Below are positions 52,616 to 61,552 of a stretch of 64,000 bases of DNA, piece by piece; positions within the stretch are counted from its first letter, which is position 1, and every line of letters starts with the position of its first letter. The notes below the pieces were generated by a model. It saw nothing but the letters and a program-made list of their open reading frames with translations. It had not been told where the DNA came from and did not search any database. A program made the position numbers and the translations under genes. This DNA is from a virus (Duplodnaviria > Caudoviricetes): IMG/VR virus record IMGVR_UViG_3300033120_000574, positions 64,001 to 128,000 of that record, one strand, 5' to 3'.

Positions 52616-53085
52616 TTCAACCTACTTATAGACTTACGCATACGTCCAACTAGCCAGGAATTGAACATAGCACGTTCTCTTCCTGAGATCGAAACCAAAC
52701 CCTTGCTTACGTCTTGTGGGCTGTATTCTCTTTCCACTGTAAGAAATTCATACTCAAGAGCTGAGGGGGTCAAGTCTTCCACTATTTGATTAAAAGACTT
52801 GGTTAGGTCTTGTAGTTGGCAAATAGCTTTATTGGTTGGCTTACCTACAACTCCACGCTCTTGTGCAATCTGAGAGTCTGATTTCCTGTCAGACTCTAAG
52901 TCTTCATCGGCATCAGCTGAGTTGTTGGCATCTATGGCATGATCATCAGGTTCACCACCAGTAACACCACTATGGTCCCTAGAGAATGACTCTTTGTATG
53001 ACCTAGAACTTTGTCTGTCATCTGCGGGTCCAGTTGCAGTATTCGGAATTCCTACTGCTTTAAAAAGGTCTAGATAAAGGTTCAT
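52612..53085 (-). CDS. hypothetical head-region protein
   Basis: 157 aa starting MNLYLDLFKA. Confidence 0.7.
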   Translation of the reverse strand: MNLYLDLFKAVGIPNTATGPADDRQSSRSYKESFSRDHSGVTGGEPDDHAIDANNSADADEDLESDRKSDSQIAQERGVVGKPTNKAICQLQDLTKSFNQIVEDLTPSALEYEFLTVEREYSPQDVSKGLVSISGRERAMFNSWLVGRMRKSISRLK

Positions 53086-54569
53086 TTACCCTCTTTCACT
53101 TCTGCTGCATCTGTATCGTCTTCAGCTTCTTCTGCTTTTTTCTTCTCTGCTCTAGAAGTCAACAAGCCATGTCCCAAACTCACTGCACCAGATCCACCAT
53201 AGTTAATTACTTGACTTCCAGCACTTCCAGCACCGCGTGGAGACACTGCAGCGTCTGCAAGTCTGGTTCCTGCATTTACACCAGTTTGTATACGCTGCTT
53301 AGCACTTATTCCATTACTTCCACCACGCTTTGTCTCTGGTGTGGGTTCTTTCTCAGTCTTTTGTGGTTTTGGTTCTTTCTCGGGCTTGTCTGGCTTAGCA
53401 ATATCTTTTGAACTTGCTTTCAAGGTCTTTAGGTCTGCTTGATGATTCTGACTTGGAACTGTTTCCAGTTGATCGTGTACATCCAAAGCAGACAGTACGT
53501 GTTGTGCTCGCTGCTCGTCATCAGGATGCATTGTTCCTGCGTCGATCTTTGCCTGAATTTGTTCTCTAAGCTGTCGAGCTTCAGCTTTATGTGCAAGTAC
53601 CTTAGCGTGGTCACTGTCTGTGGCAGGAGCAGGACTATGAGCCTTTACTTTAGCTTCATTCTCTTCTTTAAGCTTCTTTGCATCCACAGCAGTCTGCTTG
53701 TTTGTGGTCTTTGCTGTTGATTTTTTATCCGATGAGGATGCAGCTTTTTTAGGTTCTTCCTTTTTTTCTGGCTCTTTAAGTTTTGGTCCATCAGGAGTTC
53801 TAGGATCCATAGCCTCTGCATTAGCAGCAGTGGTCTTTTCATGAATCTTGGAATGAAAGTCGGAATGGTCCTGCAACCCTTCTGCTTTGAGCTGTTCACT
53901 TATTTCTTTGTGTTGAGCAGAACTGAATCCATTTGAGCGTTCTCTTGCCAGTTTCTCATGCTTCTTGGCATTTTCATCATCGCCAGTCTCTTTTGCAACC
54001 TTAGACAAACGATAGTGATCTATTGCTTTGGAGTCTGCTGGTGCATTTGAGGCATCTAGCGGATTTGGAAAGTCTTGTCTCTTGTGGCGATCTAAGTTGA
54101 TTTCTGAGTCGATCAACGTCTTCTTTTGTGAACCAGGATTCTCTTTTCCAGAATCAACGGACGCAACAGCAGGGAACTCTCTAAGCGTTCTGCTGCTGTT
54201 CTCTTCTTCGTCCTTGAAGCCACTGTTAGGAATCTCGCCAGGCTTGATCCTGCGAGTTCTCTTGTTATCCATGTTCACAGTCTTTTGTTGGTCTGCACCA
54301 ACACTACCCATGTTTTGGGATGCAGGAGTTACACCAGGCTTCTCAGGGTCGTTACCCTTAGACTCATCACCAGGAGGAGCACCTGCCTGAGAAGACTTTG
54401 CAGCCTGTGCAGTATGGTCAGTAAGCGTTTGGCTACCTAGGATATGCTTCCCACCATCTGGGCACGTACCTCCCAAAGGGCAATCAACCACCTCTGGAGA
54501 GGTGGATACCGTTTGTTTAGGTATTGATTGTCCTTTGTTTACGAGTTCAGCAGCCAAGTATAGGTACAT
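53082..54569 (-). CDS. charged low-complexity protein (probable internal head protein)
   Basis: 495 aa, K/E/P-rich, starting MYLYLAAELVNKG. Confidence 0.65.
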   Translation of the reverse strand: MYLYLAAELVNKGQSIPKQTVSTSPEVVDCPLGGTCPDGGKHILGSQTLTDHTAQAAKSSQAGAPPGDESKGNDPEKPGVTPASQNMGSVGADQQKTVNMDNKRTRRIKPGEIPNSGFKDEEENSSRTLREFPAVASVDSGKENPGSQKKTLIDSEINLDRHKRQDFPNPLDASNAPADSKAIDHYRLSKVAKETGDDENAKKHEKLARERSNGFSSAQHKEISEQLKAEGLQDHSDFHSKIHEKTTAANAEAMDPRTPDGPKLKEPEKKEEPKKAASSSDKKSTAKTTNKQTAVDAKKLKEENEAKVKAHSPAPATDSDHAKVLAHKAEARQLREQIQAKIDAGTMHPDDEQRAQHVLSALDVHDQLETVPSQNHQADLKTLKASSKDIAKPDKPEKEPKPQKTEKEPTPETKRGGSNGISAKQRIQTGVNAGTRLADAAVSPRGAGSAGSQVINYGGSGAVSLGHGLLTSRAEKKKAEEAEDDTDAAEVKEGK

Positions 54570-55217: not shown

Positions 55218-55524
55218 TTTCTTCTTTCCTCTTATTGAACGCTTTTCTATGATGAGATACCCATGCTTGGTAACGTTTAGCTACACAAGCACATATTACT
55301 GAATTCTCAGTAGCTTTGTTAATACCTACGATACCACGAGAATAACACTTTGTGCAACCCTTTAAAGCCCAGTAACCAGGACTTTCACTTGGTGTTTTGC
55401 TCTTCAAATACGCAATAAACTCTTCTCTGTCATCTGCGTACTTAGCAGCTACACGTTCTGCTACTTCAGGTGGAAGTTTACTAAGTAGTTTAGAAAAGGC
55501 ATCATCAGATGTAACAGTTCTCAT
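55177..55524 (-). CDS. zinc-ribbon protein
   Basis: CTKCYSRG...ICAC. Confidence 0.6.
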   Translation of the reverse strand: MRTVTSDDAFSKLLSKLPPEVAERVAAKYADDREEFIAYLKSKTPSESPGYWALKGCTKCYSRGIVGINKATENSVICACVAKRYQAWVSHHRKAFNKRKEENASKPEPGSEEVP

Positions 55525-55724
55525 TTGCTTCTTACTCTTTTCTTTATGGAGTCTCGTGAACTTAAGGAACGATTATGCATCCTCCTGGCCTCAACCTGTG
55601 CTCTGTGTTCTTTAAGAAACGATTCCTGTGCTTGTTTACAGTTACATGCAACCAACGTTGCAGAGTCAGCTGCTGGAAGCAAAGTCAGTGCTTCTCCACA
55701 GAATTTACACTTGTAAGAAATCAT
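55521..55724 (-). CDS. small zinc-ribbon protein
   Basis: CKFCG...ACNC. Confidence 0.55.
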   Translation of the reverse strand: MISYKCKFCGEALTLLPAADSATLVACNCKQAQESFLKEHRAQVEARRMHNRSLSSRDSIKKRVRSK

Positions 55725-56020
55725 GCTTTCCTGTGAATGGTCAGTGGTCCAACGTTCCTAGGCTTTCCAAAGGTAGCTTTGGTTAGAAATATCAAGTTAT
55801 TTATTGGTGCATGTTTCGGCAGCTTCAAACTCAAATGAAAGATTTTACCTATCTCTACAGTGTCCTTGAGTGATAGAACGACTTCGTTGTTTAAAAACAC
55901 CAAACCAGCTTGTAAGTATCTCTTACTTTCACGAATACTAGTACACATACCAGACAGGTCTAGTACTCTGTAAATTTCTGCATGAGTTGCAGTTCTGCTA
56001 GGCCAAGCCACGTATAGCAT
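55721..56020 (-). CDS. S4-like RNA-binding domain protein
   Basis: L...GMCTSIRESKRYLQAGLVFLNNEVV matches the S4 pattern; ATG at 56020. Confidence 0.65.
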   Translation of the reverse strand: MLYVAWPSRTATHAEIYRVLDLSGMCTSIRESKRYLQAGLVFLNNEVVLSLKDTVEIGKIFHLSLKLPKHAPINNLIFLTKATFGKPRNVGPLTIHRKA

Positions 56021-56026
56021 AGTGTG

Positions 56027-56035
56027 AGTATAGCA
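56027..56035 (-). promoter_or_regulatory. extended -10 promoter (possible leaderless mRNA)
   Basis: TG-C-TATACT 6 nt upstream of the ATG at 56020; no SD. Confidence 0.45.
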
Positions 56036-56036
56036 C

Positions 56037-56070
56037 AAACAGAAATACCCACGAATGTTATTCGTGGGTT
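56037..56070 (-). terminator. terminator of the tRNA operon
   Basis: ACCCACGAA-TAACA-TTCGTGGGT followed by ATTTCTGTTT. Confidence 0.65.
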
Positions 56071-56088
56071 ACTTTTGTGAGTTAGTAG

Positions 56089-56160
56089 TTTCCAGTGAAG
56101 GACTCGAACCTTCACAGACTTCTTCAGAGGAAGTTGACCTGCCAATTAGTCGAACCGGAA
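56089..56160 (-). tRNA. tRNA-Gln(CTG)
   Basis: ACTTC-CT-CTG-AA-GAAGT anticodon arm; GGTTCGAGTCC T arm. Confidence 0.85.
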
Positions 56161-56175
56161 ATATAATAATCTCGA

Positions 56176-56246
56176 AGCCCCGGACGAGAATCGAACTCAT
56201 GTCTCTCGCTTACAAGACGAGGGTACTGCCATTGTACTAACAGGGC
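56176..56246 (-). tRNA. tRNA-Thr(TGT)
   Basis: CTCGT-CT-TGT-AA-GCGAG. Confidence 0.85.
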
Positions 56247-56250
56247 AAAG

Positions 56251-56318
56251 AGGGTCTAGTGAGAATCGAACTCACCAACAATGTTTTGCAGACATCGGTC
56301 AAACCATTTGTTAGACCC
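56251..56318 (-). tRNA. tRNA-Cys(GCA), reduced D arm
   Basis: GATGT-CT-GCA-AA-ACATT; U73. Confidence 0.75.
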
Positions 56319-56324
56319 AAAAAT

Positions 56325-56398
56325 TGGAGCGTCTTGCGGGGATCAAACCCGCGCCGAGAGTTTGGAAAACTCCTATGCTATCGCTACACCAAAGACGC
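56325..56398 (-). tRNA. tRNA-Gly(TCC)
   Basis: GGAGT-TT-TCC-AA-ACTCT; encoded CCA. Confidence 0.8.
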
Positions 56399-56402
56399 AA
56401 AG

Positions 56403-56474
56403 TACCTTGTAGGAGAGTTGAACTCCTCTTACCCGATTGAAAGTCGAGAGTCCTTTCCGATAGACGAACAAGGC
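56403..56474 (-). tRNA. tRNA-Glu(TTC)
   Basis: CTCGA-CT-TTC-AA-TCGGG. Confidence 0.85.
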
Positions 56475-56477
56475 ATA

Positions 56478-56549
56478 TGACCCTATTGGGAATCTAACCC
56501 AACTTACCTAGTTGAGAACCAGGCTTCTTGAACACTAGAAGATAGGGCC
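56478..56549 (-). tRNA. tRNA-Glu(CTC)
   Basis: CCTGG-TT-CTC-AA-CTAGG; atypical T loop TTAGATT. Confidence 0.7.
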
Positions 56550-56550
56550 G

Positions 56551-56992
56551 TGGCACGTGTACGAGATGCTTTCAAAGGGCACCCACATTATGTACACATT
56601 TTTAAGAACCATGTAGCGATTGTAGTAAGTTTGGAGTCTGCTACATCTGTTGCTTTAACCCACAACAGGGATAGTAACATTCCTTATACACAACTGTGTC
56701 CTCACGACAACCTTTTAAAAACTACGTAGCAGACCCATGCGAAGCAGGGATTTACACCCTTGCAGCGTCACCGCGAACTTCTACACATACCTTAAGTTAT
56801 ATGTGCTGCGTCTTTTCAAAAACTACTTGGCGATATACTAACTGCTTTGTGTAGTTTTACCTACGCCATCTGCCTCGCACGACACCGCGAGTGTTCCTGT
56901 ATATCTTTAAAGAACCAATTTTGAGCACACAAGCAGTCAAATATATCGAGGTCTCACGCCCAACTTTGACAACCGCAAGGTTTTTAAGAACT
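56551..56992 (-). ncRNA. tandem array of 4-5 acceptor-stem-like small RNAs
   Basis: Each unit follows a GTTYTT(T)RAA leader; four close with a 7-12 bp terminal helix plus G-CCA or G-CTA; no cloverleaf. Confidence 0.55.
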
Positions 56993-56994
56993 CA

Positions 56995-57080
56995 CGAAGA
57001 GCTGAATACTCGAAATCCACACCCTTTTGAGGTGCCATCTGTTTAGCAAACAGTGCTAGTTCCTAACTAGTTAACTCTTC
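56995..57080 (-). tRNA. tRNA-Ser(GCT), 8/4 fold
   Basis: CTGT-TT-GCT-AA-ACAG; long variable arm; 8 bp acceptor and 4 bp T stem. Confidence 0.8.
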
Positions 57081-57108
57081 ATTTTAAGAACCACCAACAA
57101 CGTTGGTA

Positions 57109-57195
57109 TGGAGAACAGACGAATCGAACGCCACACCCTTTTGAGGTGCCCACTCACTTCCAATGAGGTCCAGTCCCAGACATGGTTTACTCTCC
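57109..57195 (-). tRNA. tRNA-Ser(GGA), 8/4 fold
   Basis: CTCA-TT-GGA-AG-TGAG; long variable arm. Confidence 0.75.
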
Positions 57196-57198
57196 AAA

Positions 57199-57284
57199 CG
57201 GTAGATAGAGGTATCGCGCCCCACACCCGAAAGGGTGCACACTGGTTTCAAAGCAGGTTCGGAGGCTTCTCCGATTTATCTACC
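57199..57284 (-). tRNA. tRNA-Ser(TGA), 8/4 fold
   Basis: TT-TGA-AA loop; GGTAGATA/TATCTACC acceptor; 6 bp D stem. Confidence 0.7.
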
Positions 57285-57286
57285 AA

Positions 57287-57829
57287 TCAACTTTCATCTA
57301 CCGCAAGATTCCAGTACAAGTAATCTTTCCACTCTTTTGGAGAGTTTGATAGACTTACCATGACTTTCTTCTTAGGAGACCAATCCGGTTTCGTAGGAAC
57401 ACTGTGCAGGCGCATCTTAGCCTCTGCAGGAGTCCTATCCGCCTTCTTACTGTTGCAAGTCAAGCAAGACGTTGTGATGTTGTCCCACACTGTCTTACCA
57501 CCCTTAGAGCGGGGCAAAACGTGGTCATACGTCAACTTGCTCATAGTGAATGGCTTGTTGCAGTACTGACAAGTGTAGTTGTCTCTTGCGAAGACATTCA
57601 TCCTAGAGAACTTGATTTTCTCTTTCTTAGGCTTTACATAGGTTGTCAACCTAAGTACAGCAGGACAACACATAGTGTGATTTGCACTCTTTAGTTCAAA
57701 ATCAGGGTATTCCTCTATTATGTCAACTTTCTTCTCAAACCAAAGAACTATGGCTCTTTGCCAAGTAAGAATCTTCATTGGCTCGTACGTAGCGTTCAGT
57801 AACAAGACTTTATGTTCTTCAGCTAGCAT
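57287..57829 (-). CDS. HNH endonuclease (McrA-like)
   Basis: VLLLNATYEP, RD.YTCQYC, T.DHVLPRSKGG..VWDN...C..CN..K. Confidence 0.9.
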   Translation of the reverse strand: MLAEEHKVLLLNATYEPMKILTWQRAIVLWFEKKVDIIEEYPDFELKSANHTMCCPAVLRLTTYVKPKKEKIKFSRMNVFARDNYTCQYCNKPFTMSKLTYDHVLPRSKGGKTVWDNITTSCLTCNSKKADRTPAEAKMRLHSVPTKPDWSPKKKVMVSLSNSPKEWKDYLYWNLAVDES

Positions 57830-57832
57830 AAA

Positions 57833-57905
57833 TCCACCTGGAGGGAGTTGAACCCACTCATGTCCGCTTATAAGACGGATGCCTAAACCGTTTGGCTTCA
57901 GGTGG
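57833..57905 (-). tRNA. tRNA-Ile(TAT)
   Basis: TCCGT-CT-TAT-AA-GCGGA. Confidence 0.8.
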
Positions 57906-57908
57906 GTA

Positions 57909-57978
57909 TATCAGCATCGAGAATCGAACTCGAACGTTGAAGCGTATGAAACCTAACGACTAGCCACAGTATGCTGAT
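57909..57978 (-). tRNA. tRNA with CAT anticodon (Met or Ile2), reduced D arm
   Basis: ATCAGCA/TGCTGAT acceptor; AGGT-TT-CAT-AC-GCTT. Confidence 0.6.
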
Positions 57979-58003
57979 ATGCAGAGAACCTGCAAGGGAA
58001 AAT

Positions 58004-58077
58004 TGGGAGCGATCGCCGGAGTTGAACACGGTCCTGAAGCTTATGAGACTTCGGTGCAGCCCTTACACCACCACGCC
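58004..58077 (-). tRNA. tRNA-Met(CAT), weak acceptor and T stems
   Basis: GAAGT-CT-CAT-AA-GCTTC; encoded CCA. Confidence 0.6.
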
Positions 58078-58078
58078 A

Positions 58079-58121
58079 TGTCCTAGGAGGGATTCGAACC
58101 CTCATGCTTTCGCTACACCAA
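58079..58121 (-). pseudogene. 3' half of a disrupted tRNA-Leu
   Basis: Variable arm GC-GAAA-GC, T arm GAGGG-TTCGAAT-CCCTC, acceptor strand CTAGGAC-A; no anticodon loop. Confidence 0.7.
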
Positions 58122-58149
58122 GTAAAGGACAACCAAAACAAGTATGCTA

Positions 58150-58234
58150 TAGAAACGAAGAGATTTGAACTCTTATGCACCTCACAGTGCGTTTGCGTTT
58201 GAAGCAAATGTGTAAACCATTCCACCACGTTTCC
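58150..58234 (-). tRNA. tRNA-Leu(CAA)
   Basis: TTTGC-TT-CAA-AC-GCAAA; long variable arm. Confidence 0.85.
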
Positions 58235-58244
58235 AAATAAATTT

Positions 58245-58673
58245 ATGCGAAAAAAGTATTCAAGGTACACTAAAGAGCAACTAGAACCTCTTGTTAAAGA
58301 GAGCAAATCCTATGCGGAAGTTATAAAGAAACTAGGTCTTAGGATTTGTGGAGGTAACTACGTGCTCCTACAAAGAAATATAGACAAGTTTCAAATCAGC
58401 TGTGAACATATGCTATTCCAAGCAGCGAACCAAGGAAGAGAATTTGTAAAATATGAAGAAATTTCGACGCACGCAGCTATAAAGAAACGTATTCTACGAG
58501 AACGAGGACTTGTCTGTGAGGGGTGTAATTTAGACACCTGGTTAGGTAAGCCTATTACCTTAGAGATGGATCATATAGATGGGGACAACAGGAACAACAC
58601 AAAAACAAACATAAGAATTTTGTGTCCAAATTGTCACAGTCAAACTCCAACTTGGAAGAACAACAAGAAGTAA
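58245..58673 (+). CDS. HNH endonuclease, antisense to the tRNA operon
   Basis: CEGC...LEMDHIDGDNRNN...NIRILCPNCHSQT. Confidence 0.9.
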   Translation: MRKKYSRYTKEQLEPLVKESKSYAEVIKKLGLRICGGNYVLLQRNIDKFQISCEHMLFQAANQGREFVKYEEISTHAAIKKRILRERGLVCEGCNLDTWLGKPITLEMDHIDGDNRNNTKTNIRILCPNCHSQTPTWKNNKK

Positions 58674-58695
58674 GTACCAGTTCCACCACACGGAC
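58674..58695 (-). pseudogene. 5' half of a disrupted tRNA-Leu
   Basis: GTCCGTG-TGGTGGAACTGGTAC (Leu-type D arm) abutting the HNH stop codon. Confidence 0.65.
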
Positions 58696-58783
58696 ATTCA
58701 AAATTGGTTGCCAGTTTAACTGTTACGTAAAGCACTTCTAGCAAGAAGCTTAGATTTATATTGTCACCCTAATCCAAGGGTGT

Positions 58784-58863
58784 TGCAGTTGGAGAGATTC
58801 GAACTCTCATACCGAAGCGGGAAATCTTAAAGATCCTGTGTATGCCAATTCCACCACAACTGC
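58784..58863 (-). tRNA. tRNA-Leu(TAA)
   Basis: TT-TAA-GA loop, Leu-type D arm; weak anticodon stem. Confidence 0.75.
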
Positions 58864-58877
58864 ATTTAGTTTATCAA

Positions 58878-58961
58878 TGACACAGGTGAGAGTCGAACTC
58901 ACAAGAGGAATTACCCACAACAGTTTCTAAGACTGCCCGCTCGCCGTTGGCGTACTGTGCC
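58878..58961 (-). tRNA. tRNA-Leu(TAG)
   Basis: GCAGT-CT-TAG-AA-ACTGT. Confidence 0.85.
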
Positions 58962-58966
58962 GTAAA

Positions 58967-59038
58967 TACCAGATTAGGGAATCGAACCCAACTATATCAC
59001 TGTGTAAAAGTGGTGCCTACCCAGTCAGCTTATCTGGC
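58967..59038 (-). tRNA. tRNA-Val(TAC)
   Basis: CACT-TT-TAC-AC-AGTG. Confidence 0.8.
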
Positions 59039-59043
59039 ATACT

Positions 59044-59115
59044 CGTTGTTGAAGAGAATCGAACTCTTATTTAAACTTTAGGAAAGTCTTGCTCTATCCG
59101 TTGAACTACAACAAC
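59044..59115 (-). tRNA. tRNA-Arg(CCT)
   Basis: AGACT-TT-CCT-AA-AGTTT. Confidence 0.85.
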
Positions 59116-59118
59116 AGA

Positions 59119-59143
59119 CGCTTTTGTTTGGACTTGAACCTAC
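59119..59143 (-). pseudogene. 3' end of a disrupted tRNA-Arg
   Basis: GG-TTCAAGT-CCAAA-CAAAAGC-G; acceptor strand pairs 7/7 with GCTTTTG at 59814-59820. Confidence 0.75.
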
Positions 59144-59146
59144 CAC

Positions 59147-59175
59147 TTGACGCCAAATCAAAATTGAATTATACC
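59147..59175 (+). promoter_or_regulatory. candidate promoter for the antisense HNH gene
   Basis: TTGACG-17 nt-TATACC. Confidence 0.4.
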
Positions 59176-59249
59176 GTCCTTGGTAGGAATCGAACCTACA
59201 AAATTGCTTGTTTAGAAGACAAGTGTTCTATCCGTTGAACTACAAGGAC
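59175..59249 (-). tRNA. tRNA-Arg(TCT)
   Basis: CTTGT-CT-TCT-AA-ACAAG. Confidence 0.88.
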
Positions 59250-59253
59250 AAAA

Positions 59254-59793
59254 ATGATATCAGTAACATGTGAAAACTGTAGCAAAGAATTCTTCAAGAA
59301 TAAGTCTGAAGCTGCTCGGAGCCCTAGACACTTTTGTAGCAGGTCTTGTGCAAATAGCAAGCACAACACCGAGAAAGCAAAACGAAGTAAGAAGCAAAGA
59401 ACATGTACTCTATGTACAAAGAGTTACATACAAACAAAAGCGAGACGCAAGATATGTGAAGTTTGTTTTGTTCCACCACTCTGTAAAGATAACATGACAC
59501 TCAGTCAGTGTAAGGACAAATTAAGTGTTCAAGGCAAGCACCCATCATGGTACACTGTGCACGTAAGAGGACATAATAGAACGAAGAATAAAAAGCTAGC
59601 TACTAGCTGCCAGAAATGTGGGTACAGTAAACATGTAGAGTGTTGTCATATCAAACCAGTCGCAAGTTTTGAAGGCAATGCAACGTTGGCTGAAATTAAT
59701 CATGTGGACAATATTGTTGTTTTATGTAGAAATTGTCACTGGGAGTTTGACCACAATCAACTAAGCATAGTAGATATTCCAAAGCGTAAGTAA
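59254..59793 (+). CDS. HNH endonuclease with N-terminal zinc fingers, antisense to the tRNA operon
   Basis: CENC...FCSRSC; CQKCGY...ECCHIKP...N..DN.VVLCRNCHWEFD. Confidence 0.9.
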   Translation: MISVTCENCSKEFFKNKSEAARSPRHFCSRSCANSKHNTEKAKRSKKQRTCTLCTKSYIQTKARRKICEVCFVPPLCKDNMTLSQCKDKLSVQGKHPSWYTVHVRGHNRTKNKKLATSCQKCGYSKHVECCHIKPVASFEGNATLAEINHVDNIVVLCRNCHWEFDHNQLSIVDIPKRK

Positions 59794-59795
59794 TT

Positions 59796-59820
59796 ACGCT
59801 ATCCTTTGTGCTACAAAAGC
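59796..59820 (-). pseudogene. 5' half of a disrupted tRNA-Arg
   Basis: GCTTTTG-TAGCACAAAGGATAGCGT (Arg-type D loop GGATA), next to the HNH stop codon. Confidence 0.75.
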
Positions 59821-59823
59821 AAG

Positions 59824-59896
59824 CCTAGGTAGAGGGATTTGAACCCCTCATTTCACGGTTCGTAGCCGCGCGTGGTATCCGTTACACTATACCTAG
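59824..59896 (-). tRNA. tRNA-Arg(ACG)
   Basis: CGCGG-CT-ACG-AA-CCGTG. Confidence 0.85.
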
Positions 59897-59899
59897 ATA

Positions 59900-59971
59900 A
59901 GCCGCCACAGGTACTTGAAACCTGTTTTCCTCCATACCAAGGAGGTACATCACCATATATGTTTTAGCGGC
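59900..59971 (-). tRNA. tRNA-Thr(GGT)
   Basis: CCTCC-TT-GGT-AT-GGAGG. Confidence 0.8.
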
Positions 59972-59974
59972 ACA

Positions 59975-60047
59975 TGGACAAGACTGGACTCGAACCAGCG
60001 GTCTTCTGAGTGCAAGTCAGAGGTTTTCCCAACTAAACTACTCGCCC
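59975..60047 (-). tRNA. tRNA-Ala(TGC)
   Basis: TCTGA-CT-TGC-AC-TCAGA; G3:U70 present. Confidence 0.88.
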
Positions 60048-60054
60048 AATTAAA

Positions 60055-60172
60055 ACTGACGAAATTGTTACCATTACAACACATTGCCACTGCAGTGAAT
60101 TCAAGACTAATCAAGCAAAATTACGCCCATAGTCTTAACAATGCTGGGAATCGAACCCAGGTCTTCGTACTT
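60055..60172 (-). ncRNA. circularly permuted tRNA-like RNA (YrlA/Y-RNA-like)
   Basis: Order is T arm, internally closed acceptor-like stem, D arm; the termini ACGAAG and TTTCGT pair. Confidence 0.6.
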
Positions 60173-60173
60173 C

Positions 60174-60241
60174 CACGTTATATAGGAATCGAACCTATGA
60201 TGAAAAGTTTTGGAGGCTTCTCTGTGCCCAGCACCTAACGT
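60174..60241 (-). tRNA. tRNA-Trp(CCA), reduced D arm
   Basis: CT-CCA-AA loop; D arm GTGC-TGG-GCAC; G73. Confidence 0.7.
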
Positions 60242-60259
60242 ATACAAGCTAAGATAAGA

Positions 60260-60331
60260 AGTGACTGACGGGAATTGAACCCGCTAATACCTGATTCACA
60301 ATCAAGCGCTTGGCCATTTAGCTTCAGCCAC
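60260..60331 (-). tRNA. tRNA-His(GTG)
   Basis: CTTGA-TT-GTG-AA-TCAGG. Confidence 0.85.
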
Positions 60332-60332
60332 A

Positions 60333-60403
60333 CGCTCCATAGGGGAATCGAACCCCTCTCAACTTGGAGACAACAAGTCCGCAACCCAGTTGCGCAATGG
60401 AGC
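60333..60403 (-). tRNA. tRNA-Asp(GTC)
   Basis: ACTTG-TT-GTC-TC-CAAGT; G73. Confidence 0.8.
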
Positions 60404-60458
60404 AGGCACGGCATCTTACTTTTTTGGGGTGCGTCAGCTAGCCGTAATCGACCCACAG

Positions 60459-60531
60459 TGCCATCGACTGGACTCGAACCAGCATTTATGTCCGGTTAAA
60501 AGCCGGGTACCAACCTTTAGGTGACGATGGC
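60459..60531 (-). tRNA. tRNA-Lys(TTT)
   Basis: CCGG-CT-TTT-AA-CCGG. Confidence 0.85.
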
Positions 60532-60534
60532 AAA

Positions 60535-60609
60535 TCCAAGCAGAAGGAATCGAACCTGTCAATCTCTCGCTTATCAGGCAAGCGTATATAACCACTATAC
60601 TATGCTTGG
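60535..60609 (-). tRNA. tRNA-Ile(GAT)
   Basis: CTTGC-CT-GAT-AA-GCGAG. Confidence 0.85.
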
Positions 60610-60614
60610 GTTAG

Positions 60615-60686
60615 TCCAGCTAAGAAGATTCGAACTTCTATTGTCCTGTACCCAAAACAGGTGGGTTACCGTTACCCTATAGCTAG
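60615..60686 (-). tRNA. tRNA-Pro(TGG)
   Basis: CCTGT-TT-TGG-GT-ACAGG; C1-G72. Confidence 0.85.
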
Positions 60687-60692
60687 ATGAAA

Positions 60693-60777
60693 TGCCCCAT
60701 GGAAGGAATCGAACCTCACAGCCTAACGGCACGTGGTTTACAGCCACGGGGATGTTCCAACATCCGGATCACAGGAC
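60693..60777 (-). tRNA. tRNA-Tyr(GTA), atypical fold
   Basis: CGTGG-CT-GTA-AA-CCACG; extended D stem GGATGTT/AACATCC. Confidence 0.7.
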
Positions 60778-60781
60778 AAAG

Positions 60782-60854
60782 TGCAACCTACTGGAATCGA
60801 ACCAATTTGTCTTGTTCTTCAGACAAGCGCATTAACCATAATTGCTTAGGTTGC
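60782..60854 (-). tRNA. tRNA-Phe(GAA)
   Basis: CTTGT-CT-GAA-GA-ACAAG. Confidence 0.85.
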
Positions 60855-60859
60855 ATTGA

Positions 60860-60934
60860 CTGGGACGGCAGGAGTCGAACCTGCAATCACTATATTAACA
60901 GTATAGCCGTCGCGCCGATATGACGAACATCCCA
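60860..60934 (-). tRNA. tRNA-Asn(GTT)
   Basis: CTATA-CT-GTT-AA-TATAG; G73. Confidence 0.85.
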
Positions 60935-60951
60935 ATAATCTAACTCTTATT

Positions 60952-60965
60952 CAGTTTTCAAAAAG
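60952..60965 (-). promoter_or_regulatory. rrn boxA-like antitermination motif
   Basis: CTTTTTGAAAACTG resembles the TCTTTGAAAAC boxA of many rRNA leaders. Confidence 0.45.
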
Positions 60966-61041
60966 TTTCCAGGGTAGGATTCGAACCTACGACCATCAGT
61001 TTCAAAGACTGAGTACACGTGCCAGCAGCGTAGACCTGGAA
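60966..61041 (-). tRNA. tRNA-Gln(TTG)
   Basis: TCAGT-CT-TTG-AA-ACTGA. Confidence 0.8.
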
Positions 61042-61042
61042 G

Positions 61043-61115
61043 TGGTAACGAAGGGAATCGAACCCTCTATGGCTTGCTTAAGAGGCAAGTGCTTATCCAG
61101 TTTAGCTTCGTTACC
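61043..61115 (-). tRNA. tRNA-Lys(CTT)
   Basis: CTTGC-CT-CTT-AA-GCAAG. Confidence 0.88.
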
Positions 61116-61144
61116 AAGAAGTAAGAGAACATCTTACTTCGGAT

Positions 61145-61173
61145 ATGCTATCACTTATCTTTTTCGTTGTCAA
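61145..61173 (-). promoter_or_regulatory. sigma70-type promoter of the tRNA operon
   Basis: TTGACA-17 nt-TAGCAT with extended TG, about 30 nt upstream of the first tRNA. Confidence 0.7.
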
Positions 61174-61552
61174 GAGAAATCGTAGCTAGGCGCTTTCTAG
61201 TATTCTCTATTCGCTTTGCTAGCCTGGAGTAGCCTAGTATGACTACTTTTGGCAGACCTGAGTCTTTTGTCAAGGCCAATTTGTCGGAGACAACACGAAG
61301 CATGTCAGGTACACGTGTAAACGAAGGCTCAGCTAAGAAGATGCAGGCTGCTGCCAACTCACCACTCAAAGCATCCACCAAGTTCTCCAGTTCGTCAAGG
61401 TCAGGATTCTCTTTTGTTGTCATCCCGGTATCTGCAAACATCTGGTGTAATGCTTGTGCAAACGCAACTGCGTCAGCTGCATACTCCAAAGCTTCCTTAC
61501 TTGGAGAAGATGACTCTAGAGACTCTATGATCTTGGAATAATTATCACTCAT
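61151..61552 (-). CDS. hypothetical helical protein
   Basis: 133 aa, ATGA-coupled to the RHH gene. Confidence 0.65.
   Translation of the reverse strand: MSDNYSKIIESLESSSPSKEALEYAADAVAFAQALHQMFADTGMTTKENPDLDELENLVDALSGELAAACIFLAEPSFTRVPDMLRVVSDKLALTKDSGLPKVVILGYSRLAKRIENTRKRLATISLDNEKDK

Follow-up and report, generated by a model that had tools for sequence, protein, structure and literature searches.

To our knowledge, homing endonucleases are thought to persist in essential genes only by means of a self-splicing intron or intein, or by residing between genes. The tRNA-Leu(UAA) gene of cyanobacteria and plastids contains a group I intron in the anticodon loop, between U34 and A35. A free-standing endonuclease gene without an intron, mobE, is reportedly located inside nrdA of the Aeromonas phage Aeh1, and both pieces of the gene are said to be functional, with products that reassemble. 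The enzymes F-TflI, F-TflII and F-TflIV are HNH enzymes encoded among the tRNA genes of phage T5, where they are annotated between whole tRNA genes.

The phages T4 and T6 carry a selfish nuclease gene, SegB, among their tRNA genes (PMC2330249, PMC13096335); SegB cuts within tRNA genes of phages without it and is co-inherited with the neighbouring tRNA genes (PMC2330249; PMC13096335). It is a free-standing GIY-YIG endonuclease located between genes and targets a shared T-loop motif without isotype preference (PMC13096335); neither the splitting of a tRNA gene nor an enclosed spare of the same isoacceptor is described in PMC2330249 or PMC13096335. The anticodon region of a tRNA-fMet gene is the site of the intron-encoded endonuclease I-Ssp6803I (Bonocora and Shub 2001, as cited in PMC3984707). 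Phage introns known by 2014 were all located in protein-coding genes (review, PMC3984707). Our literature search yielded no description of a cassette composed of an endonuclease and a spare tRNA.

In this study, we analyzed a tRNA array in a 64,000-nt stretch of DNA (the window), which is part of a 139-kb uncultured viral contig (IMG/VR). Like SegB, the HNH endonuclease gene considered here lies in a phage tRNA array; unlike SegB, it is situated inside a broken gene, and its family is tied to tRNA-Leu. With the intron of cyanobacterial and plastid tRNA-Leu(UAA) it has the anticodon-loop target in common, as its relatives in the loci L044, L054, L009 and L042 are found after U34, but the window has no ribozyme, and function would be restored by a second gene and not by splicing. 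Whereas the pieces of nrdA are said to work, the pieces in the window appear dead and a spare gene would take over. The T5 F-Tfl enzymes are likewise HNH enzymes among phage tRNA genes, and a homologue of the window HNH occurs in the T5-like phage Kenya-K16; as annotated, the F-Tfl genes, however, lie between whole tRNA genes. The locus in the window is likely to be a ribozyme-free homing-endonuclease cassette, consisting of an antisense HNH gene and its own tRNA-Leu(CAA), inside a resident tRNA-Leu(CAA) gene. Homing endonucleases themselves are already known; in our view, the Leu cassette owes its value to the evidence from the empty site and to the substitution by a tRNA of identical anticodon.

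Anatomy of the broken tRNA-Leu gene

The tRNA operon is located on the minus strand and runs from 61115 to 56088, with 25 tRNAs called by ARAGORN and three HNH genes breaking it up. Around the locus, the array consists of Val(tac), Leu(tag) and tRNA(tta), followed by the split Leu and its insert and then by a Met-like gene, Met and Ile(tat). For the region 57800-59900, megablast and blastn revealed no phage relative in GenBank but scattered tRNA matches only. The first-pass annotation had placed a tRNA-Leu 5' half, an antisense HNH gene, an intact tRNA-Leu(CAA) and a tRNA-Leu 3' half in this order, and the coordinates of all these elements were confirmed:

58674-58695, minus strand: 5' stub of the resident tRNA-Leu, 22 nt, with acceptor 5' strand, U8-G9, D-stem 5' strand and D loop
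58245-58673, plus strand (antisense to the tRNA operon): HNH homing-endonuclease gene, 142 aa, intact ORF, phrog_10822
58150-58234, minus strand: carried complete tRNA-Leu(CAA), type II, A73 under the Infernal bounds, found with ARAGORN and Rfam tRNA
58127-58149, no strand: AT-rich spacer from the carried tRNA to the 3' stub, too short for any ribozyme
58079-58126, minus strand: 3' stub of the resident tRNA-Leu, with CTTGG, long variable arm, T arm, acceptor 3' strand and A73

The 5' stub, read on the minus strand from 58695 to 58674, has the sequence GTCCGTG-TG-GTGG-AACTGGTAC and directly abuts the HNH gene, the TAA stop codon of which ends at 58673 (0-nt spacing). An nhmmer profile of Leu 5' halves also detected it, weakly (E 0.9). 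The carried tRNA was placed at 58149-58235 by ARAGORN and at 58150-58234 by Infernal (56.2 bits with Rfam tRNA), and its 5' end is about 10 nt away from the HNH start codon. A promoter scan gave no sigma-70-like site for the HNH gene on the plus strand. The 3' stub comprises, from 58121 to 58079, a 14-nt variable arm, a T arm (5-bp stem, TTCGAAT loop), CTAGGAC and the discriminator A, and is directly followed by the next tRNA-like gene. The preceding CTTGG, extending to 58126, is probably the 3' strand of the anticodon stem, so that the 3' stub would begin five bases earlier than 58121. With the stub starting at this strand, the old tRNA has lost about 15 nt; the broken gene has no D-stem 3' strand, no anticodon-stem 5' strand and no anticodon. 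A CCAAG in the 3' end of the HNH gene was considered as a hidden anticodon-stem strand and rejected because it encodes a conserved TPTW motif. Neither stub belongs to any called tRNA. Their acceptor strands pair at five of seven positions, as had been noted before, and all five pairs are Watson-Crick; the probability of at least 5/7 by chance is about 0.013.

As relatives of the HNH gene probably reside in group I introns of tRNA-Leu, some of them as antisense ORFs (L009, L042), the halves might be thought to form a functional split or intron-containing tRNA that is assembled by cis or trans splicing of the RNA. For the window, we regard this as extremely improbable. The non-coding spacers of the locus measure 0, about 10 and about 23-27 nt, in total less than 40 nt, and leave no room for a ribozyme. 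A permissive Rfam search of 55500-61500 gave no Intron_gpI match at E values up to 10, and a group I ribozyme core (P3-P9) is absent between the exons; the locus is thus without a group I intron. The parts of the tRNA that are absent and the acceptor pairing of 5/7 also argue against a spliced product, and a whole tRNA inside a putative intron would be excised by RNase P and RNase Z. The insertion does not separate U34 from A35 between complete exons, since the 5' stub stops at about nt 22. The locus also differs from split tRNAs of the Nanoarchaeum type, the halves of which make a complete tRNA and have pairing leaders.

The empty site in related phages

Relatives of the window were located via a nearby metallophosphoesterase, initially in IMG/VR, with closer ones in metagenomes. 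With the 495-aa ORF 53082-54569 as query no related loci were obtained, because this protein is of low complexity. The IMG/VR relatives L082 and L084 are too diverged to settle orthology alone. The metagenome loci L114 and L115 show 77% identity to the window in the phosphoesterase and have the syntenic order ...Arg, Val(tac), Leu(tag), [Leu(gag)], Leu(caa), ..., Ile(tat) without an HNH gene. At one and the same site, an insertion is therefore present in the window and absent in L114 and L115, both of which have a whole Leu(caa).

For the assignment of the stubs, 142 tRNAs of the window and seven relatives were used as comparison set. Both stubs obtained the top score with Leu(caa) of L115 and the second score with Leu(caa) of L114, i.e. 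with the same positional orthologue, and a derivation of the two halves from different tRNA genes, which would have undermined the first-pass reading, was not observed. The 3' stub is identical to the L115 gene at 30/35 positions, variable arm included, and the 5' stub to its 5' end at 16/18. In contrast, the carried tRNA-Leu(CAA) is only 52-57% identical to Leu(caa) of L114 and L115, which share 73% identity with each other, and therefore looks foreign. The G+C content is 0.38 for the HNH gene and 0.42 for the carried tRNA, compared with 0.445 for the genome and 0.48 for the mean tRNA. As the relatives keep the gene whole, the stubs match their orthologue and the carried tRNA is diverged, we conclude from these sequences that the resident tRNA-Leu(CAA) gene was disrupted and appears to have been replaced by a foreign tRNA-Leu(CAA). 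The own anticodon of the broken gene is gone; its CAA identity is suggested by orthologues in relatives whose neighbouring protein is only about 77% identical. In IMG/VR, no exact match was obtained for a 21-mer of the 5' stub. A 23-mer match of the 3' stub in the unrelated phage L113, a tRNA(caa) of 75 nt that shares the T arm and the acceptor 3' strand with the stub and has GTCCTTG as its 5' strand, was given no weight, since a single match is about the chance expectation.

The roles could also be reversed: the stubs would be the remains of a dead duplicate, the intact Leu(CAA) would be the phage's own gene, and a free-standing HNH gene would have landed in the spacer. Such plain decay would agree with the acceptor pairing of only 5/7 and with the tRNA-like relics and odd tRNAs that are common in this array, but we consider it very unlikely, since it is the stubs and not the intact gene that match the positional orthologue of the relatives, the stubs flank the pair of HNH gene and tRNA exactly, with 0 nt to the stop codon, and the same layout is found with 7/7 pairing in other phages. 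A further argument against decay is provided by a second cassette of the same order, 500 nt away from the Leu cassette.

This Arg cassette (59117-59822) consists of a 5' stub, an antisense HNH_2-type gene, a tRNA-Arg(tct) and a 3' stub. Its 5' stub agrees with Arg(tct) of L114 and L115 at 19/22 positions, and its acceptor strands pair 7/7 (read by eye from the sequence). The Arg 5' stub is 27 nt long and extends through the whole D arm, whereas the Leu 5' stub ends in the D loop. The two cassettes therefore have order and orientation in common, as had been described, while the junction, which had been described as the same, is not identical. The more general suggestion that the design reflects a strategy rather than chance decay is supported, with halves that come from one gene and a layout that recurs elsewhere.

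The HNH family and its sites of insertion

The HNH protein was assigned to phrog_10822 (PHROG 10822, HNH endonuclease family) with an E value of 1e-39; its score with Pfam HNH (17.6 bits) is below the cut-off, and a PDB sequence search gave nothing significant. The residues C91, C94, H110, N122, C127, C130 and H131 are invariant in nine aligned relatives. With both CxxC pairs and the catalytic residues H110, N122 and H131 kept, the protein has the HNH motif with zinc-binding cysteine pairs of a beta-beta-alpha-metal homing endonuclease, and the predicted catalytic motif is intact.

At least 585 relatives of this protein are present in IMG/VR. In 75 non-redundant homologue loci, 50 of the 85 tRNAs located at most 150 nt from the HNH gene are Leu, compared with a background of 14.7% (p 1e-20); the family is tied to tRNA-Leu genes. 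Homologues in cultured phages adjoin tRNA-Leu as well, namely in Rhodococcus phage Francesca, the Felix O1-like phage mistaenkt and the T5-like phage Kenya-K16, in the latter next to tRNA-Leu(TAG). In Francesca, an orphan Leu-like 5' half follows right after the HNH stop codon (weak match, E 0.06). The profile of Leu 5' halves detected 32 orphan halves among the HNH loci, mostly adjoining the HNH gene. For 15 of these 32, a T arm and an acceptor partner pairing 7/7 were found downstream, compared with 2.5% in cross-locus controls. Besides the window, 14 loci (13 distinct ones, as L061 and L063 are identical) have a 5' half and a partner pairing at 6/7 or better on the two sides of the HNH gene; in twelve of them the pairing is 7/7.

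The 5' part runs to GACTT, i.e. to U34, in twelve loci including L044, L050, L054, L080, L009 and L042. The usual entry point of the family is thus the anticodon loop after nucleotide 34 and not the D loop. Two types of occupied site can be distinguished. In the intron type, the HNH gene lies on the tRNA strand (L044, L050, L054, L080) or antisense to it (L009, L042), no tRNA is enclosed, and the insert contains 330-450 nt of non-coding sequence. Sub-threshold Rfam matches to group I introns were obtained for L044 (42.6 bits, E 2.5e-9), L054 (31.7 bits, 5e-6) and L009 (30.2 bits, 8e-4). Typical group I core strings occur in L009 and L042, both with the insertion at U34/A35 between complete exons, and the 3' exon of L009 begins with AAAA and the stem. 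These other family members thus probably occupy a group I intron that interrupts tRNA-Leu after U34. The segments L009:3815-4604 and L042:3805-4701 resemble group I introns in phage tRNA-Leu(UAA) with the HNH frame antisense to the intron.

In the cassette type, no ribozyme match and little spare sequence were found, and one whole tRNA is enclosed. L045 and L003 have the layout of the window (5' part, antisense HNH, tRNA, 3' part) with acceptor strands pairing 7/7. The insert of L045 is placed exactly between CTT and AAAA (U34/A35), both exons being complete, and its HNH stop codon is complementary to U33-U34-A35. The order in L008 and L039 is 5' part, tRNA, sense HNH, 3' part, again with 7/7 pairing, and the same order is present in L025 in a Gln-like tRNA (U1-A72, broken after U34) that carries a tRNA-Gln(ttg) and pairs 7/7. 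In every cassette seen, the enclosed and the broken tRNA share the amino acid (Leu in L003, L045, L008 and L039), as judged by the anticodon, on which alone the ARAGORN names rest. The pattern seen in the window therefore recurs, with HNH homologues elsewhere lying between 7/7-paired stubs and enclosing a whole tRNA for the same amino acid. In L002 and L052, the 5' stub abuts the HNH stop codon; a 3' stub was found in neither of them, and L002 runs into the contig end.

The carried tRNAs L003:3899-3975, L045:3856-3931, L008:3864-3937 and L010:4453-4527 share a UAA anticodon and a short variable arm; at 74-77 nt, they have type I shape. Between L003 and L045, the identity of the carried tRNAs is 70%, despite HNH genes from different clades. 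L061:2310-3026 (identical in L063) contains an orphan Leu 5' half, the HNH gene and a whole tRNA-Leu(gag), the 3' acceptor strand of which pairs 7/7 with the orphan half; a 5' half duplicated around the endonuclease gene amounts to a third way to keep the target gene whole.

In the phylogeny, the window HNH falls into a fully supported clade with L002, L003, L052 and L004/L005. As the four closest cassettes (window, L002, L003, L052) belong to this one clade, their layout was not invented independently but is inherited within the clade; the position of L045 and of the sense-strand cassettes elsewhere in the tree indicates repeated origin or transfer of the cassette form. The SegB-like position between intact genes, which does not apply to the window HNH inside its broken gene, fits L004 and L005, where a free-standing HNH gene lies just downstream of a whole Leu(taa). 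Although the ORFs of the window clade terminate at homologous residues, the 5' stubs stop at the tRNA positions 22, 25, 28 and 32, a spread that, in our view, can be explained only by assuming later deletions or imprecise repair. The 5' junction of the window in the D loop differs from the usual site of the family and looks like later erosion.

This variation of stub length from 22 to 32 nt, together with the loss of about 15 nt, would also be expected if a foreign HNH gene had, along with its own adjacent tRNA-Leu, replaced the middle of the resident gene without homing as a unit. Such recombinational overwriting would proceed by illegitimate or microhomology-mediated repair in conserved tRNA segments, and the layout would be a by-product of recombination stimulated by the endonuclease. 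It would agree with the position of HNH downstream of a whole gene in L004 and L005 of the same clade, with the duplicated 5' half in front of the HNH gene and the whole tRNA in L061, with the poor conservation of the carried tRNAs, which are only 52-70% identical between different cassettes, and with the report that SegB drives recombination and amplification around tRNA genes (PMC13096335). We nevertheless judge it unlikely, because in L045 and L003 the anticodon loop contains or adjoins the insert and little sequence, if any, was lost, and because the anticodon of the enclosed tRNA stands for the same amino acid as the broken tRNA in every cassette seen. It is also opposed by the distance of the HNH start from the carried tRNA, which is only 4-15 nt in the window, L002, L052, L046 and L003 (ARAGORN call) and suggests a linked unit.

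Proposed mechanism, implications and neighbouring genes

For the homing cassette, we propose the following course of events. The HNH enzyme would cut or nick the intact tRNA-Leu gene of cassette-free co-infecting phages near the anticodon loop, by analogy with intron-borne and free-standing homing endonucleases (PMC3984707; SegB, PMC2330249). The break would then be repaired from the cassette-bearing genome, with the tRNA halves and the neighbouring tRNA genes serving as homology arms, whereby the HNH gene and its tRNA would be copied into the cassette-free genome. Both the disrupted allele and the divergent carried tRNA would escape further cutting, and the latter would supply the CAA-anticodon decoding destroyed by the insertion, a task that in the intron-borne relatives would be fulfilled by the self-splicing ribozyme. 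After fixation, the stubs would be free to decay; in the window, about 15 nt around the anticodon and two acceptor pairs may have been lost in this way. In our view, the window cassette is an old, eroded member of a recurrent class.

Going further, a single HNH family may use two interchangeable rescues, either self-splicing by a ribozyme or a linked spare tRNA that resists the nuclease and has the same specificity, and the latter would be a natural cleave-and-rescue drive that spreads among phage populations and replaces resident phage tRNAs; we see about even chances for this wider interpretation. For RNA genes, breaking the target and bringing a working copy would represent a third solution besides introns or inteins and intergenic positions. 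Such a strategy would explain stubs and duplicated isoacceptors in phage tRNA arrays and would give a mechanism for the horizontal exchange of tRNA genes between phages. If true, cleave-and-rescue drives swap resident tRNAs for foreign ones and thereby steadily reshuffle phage tRNA sets, and the window would hold two such drives (Leu, Arg) based on unrelated HNH proteins. They would be a natural analogue of engineered cleave-and-rescue gene drives, with natural enzymes that may recognize tRNA-Leu gene sequences. The probable group I introns found here in phage tRNA genes are of a kind unknown according to the 2014 review (PMC3984707).

Some further features of the array were observed next to the cassette. 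At 58782-58864 on the minus strand, there is a type II Leu-like tRNA with the anticodon UUA according to ARAGORN, which would pair with the stop codon TAA. Its anticodon stem is weak, and L114 has Leu(gag) at the same array position. As the ORFs of the window are normal under table 11, recoding via this tRNA is not evident. The tRNA-like gene at 58005-58078 (minus strand), which follows the 3' stub, was called by neither ARAGORN nor Rfam. Its anticodon loop has CAU, its T arm is poor and its 3' end odd, yet relatives retain it at the equivalent position of the array (L114:12163-12235, L084:14737-14810). The 5' stub is separated from the tRNA with the UUA anticodon by an 86-nt spacer (58696-58781) containing two hairpins, whereas neighbouring tRNA genes of the relatives are 3-7 nt apart.
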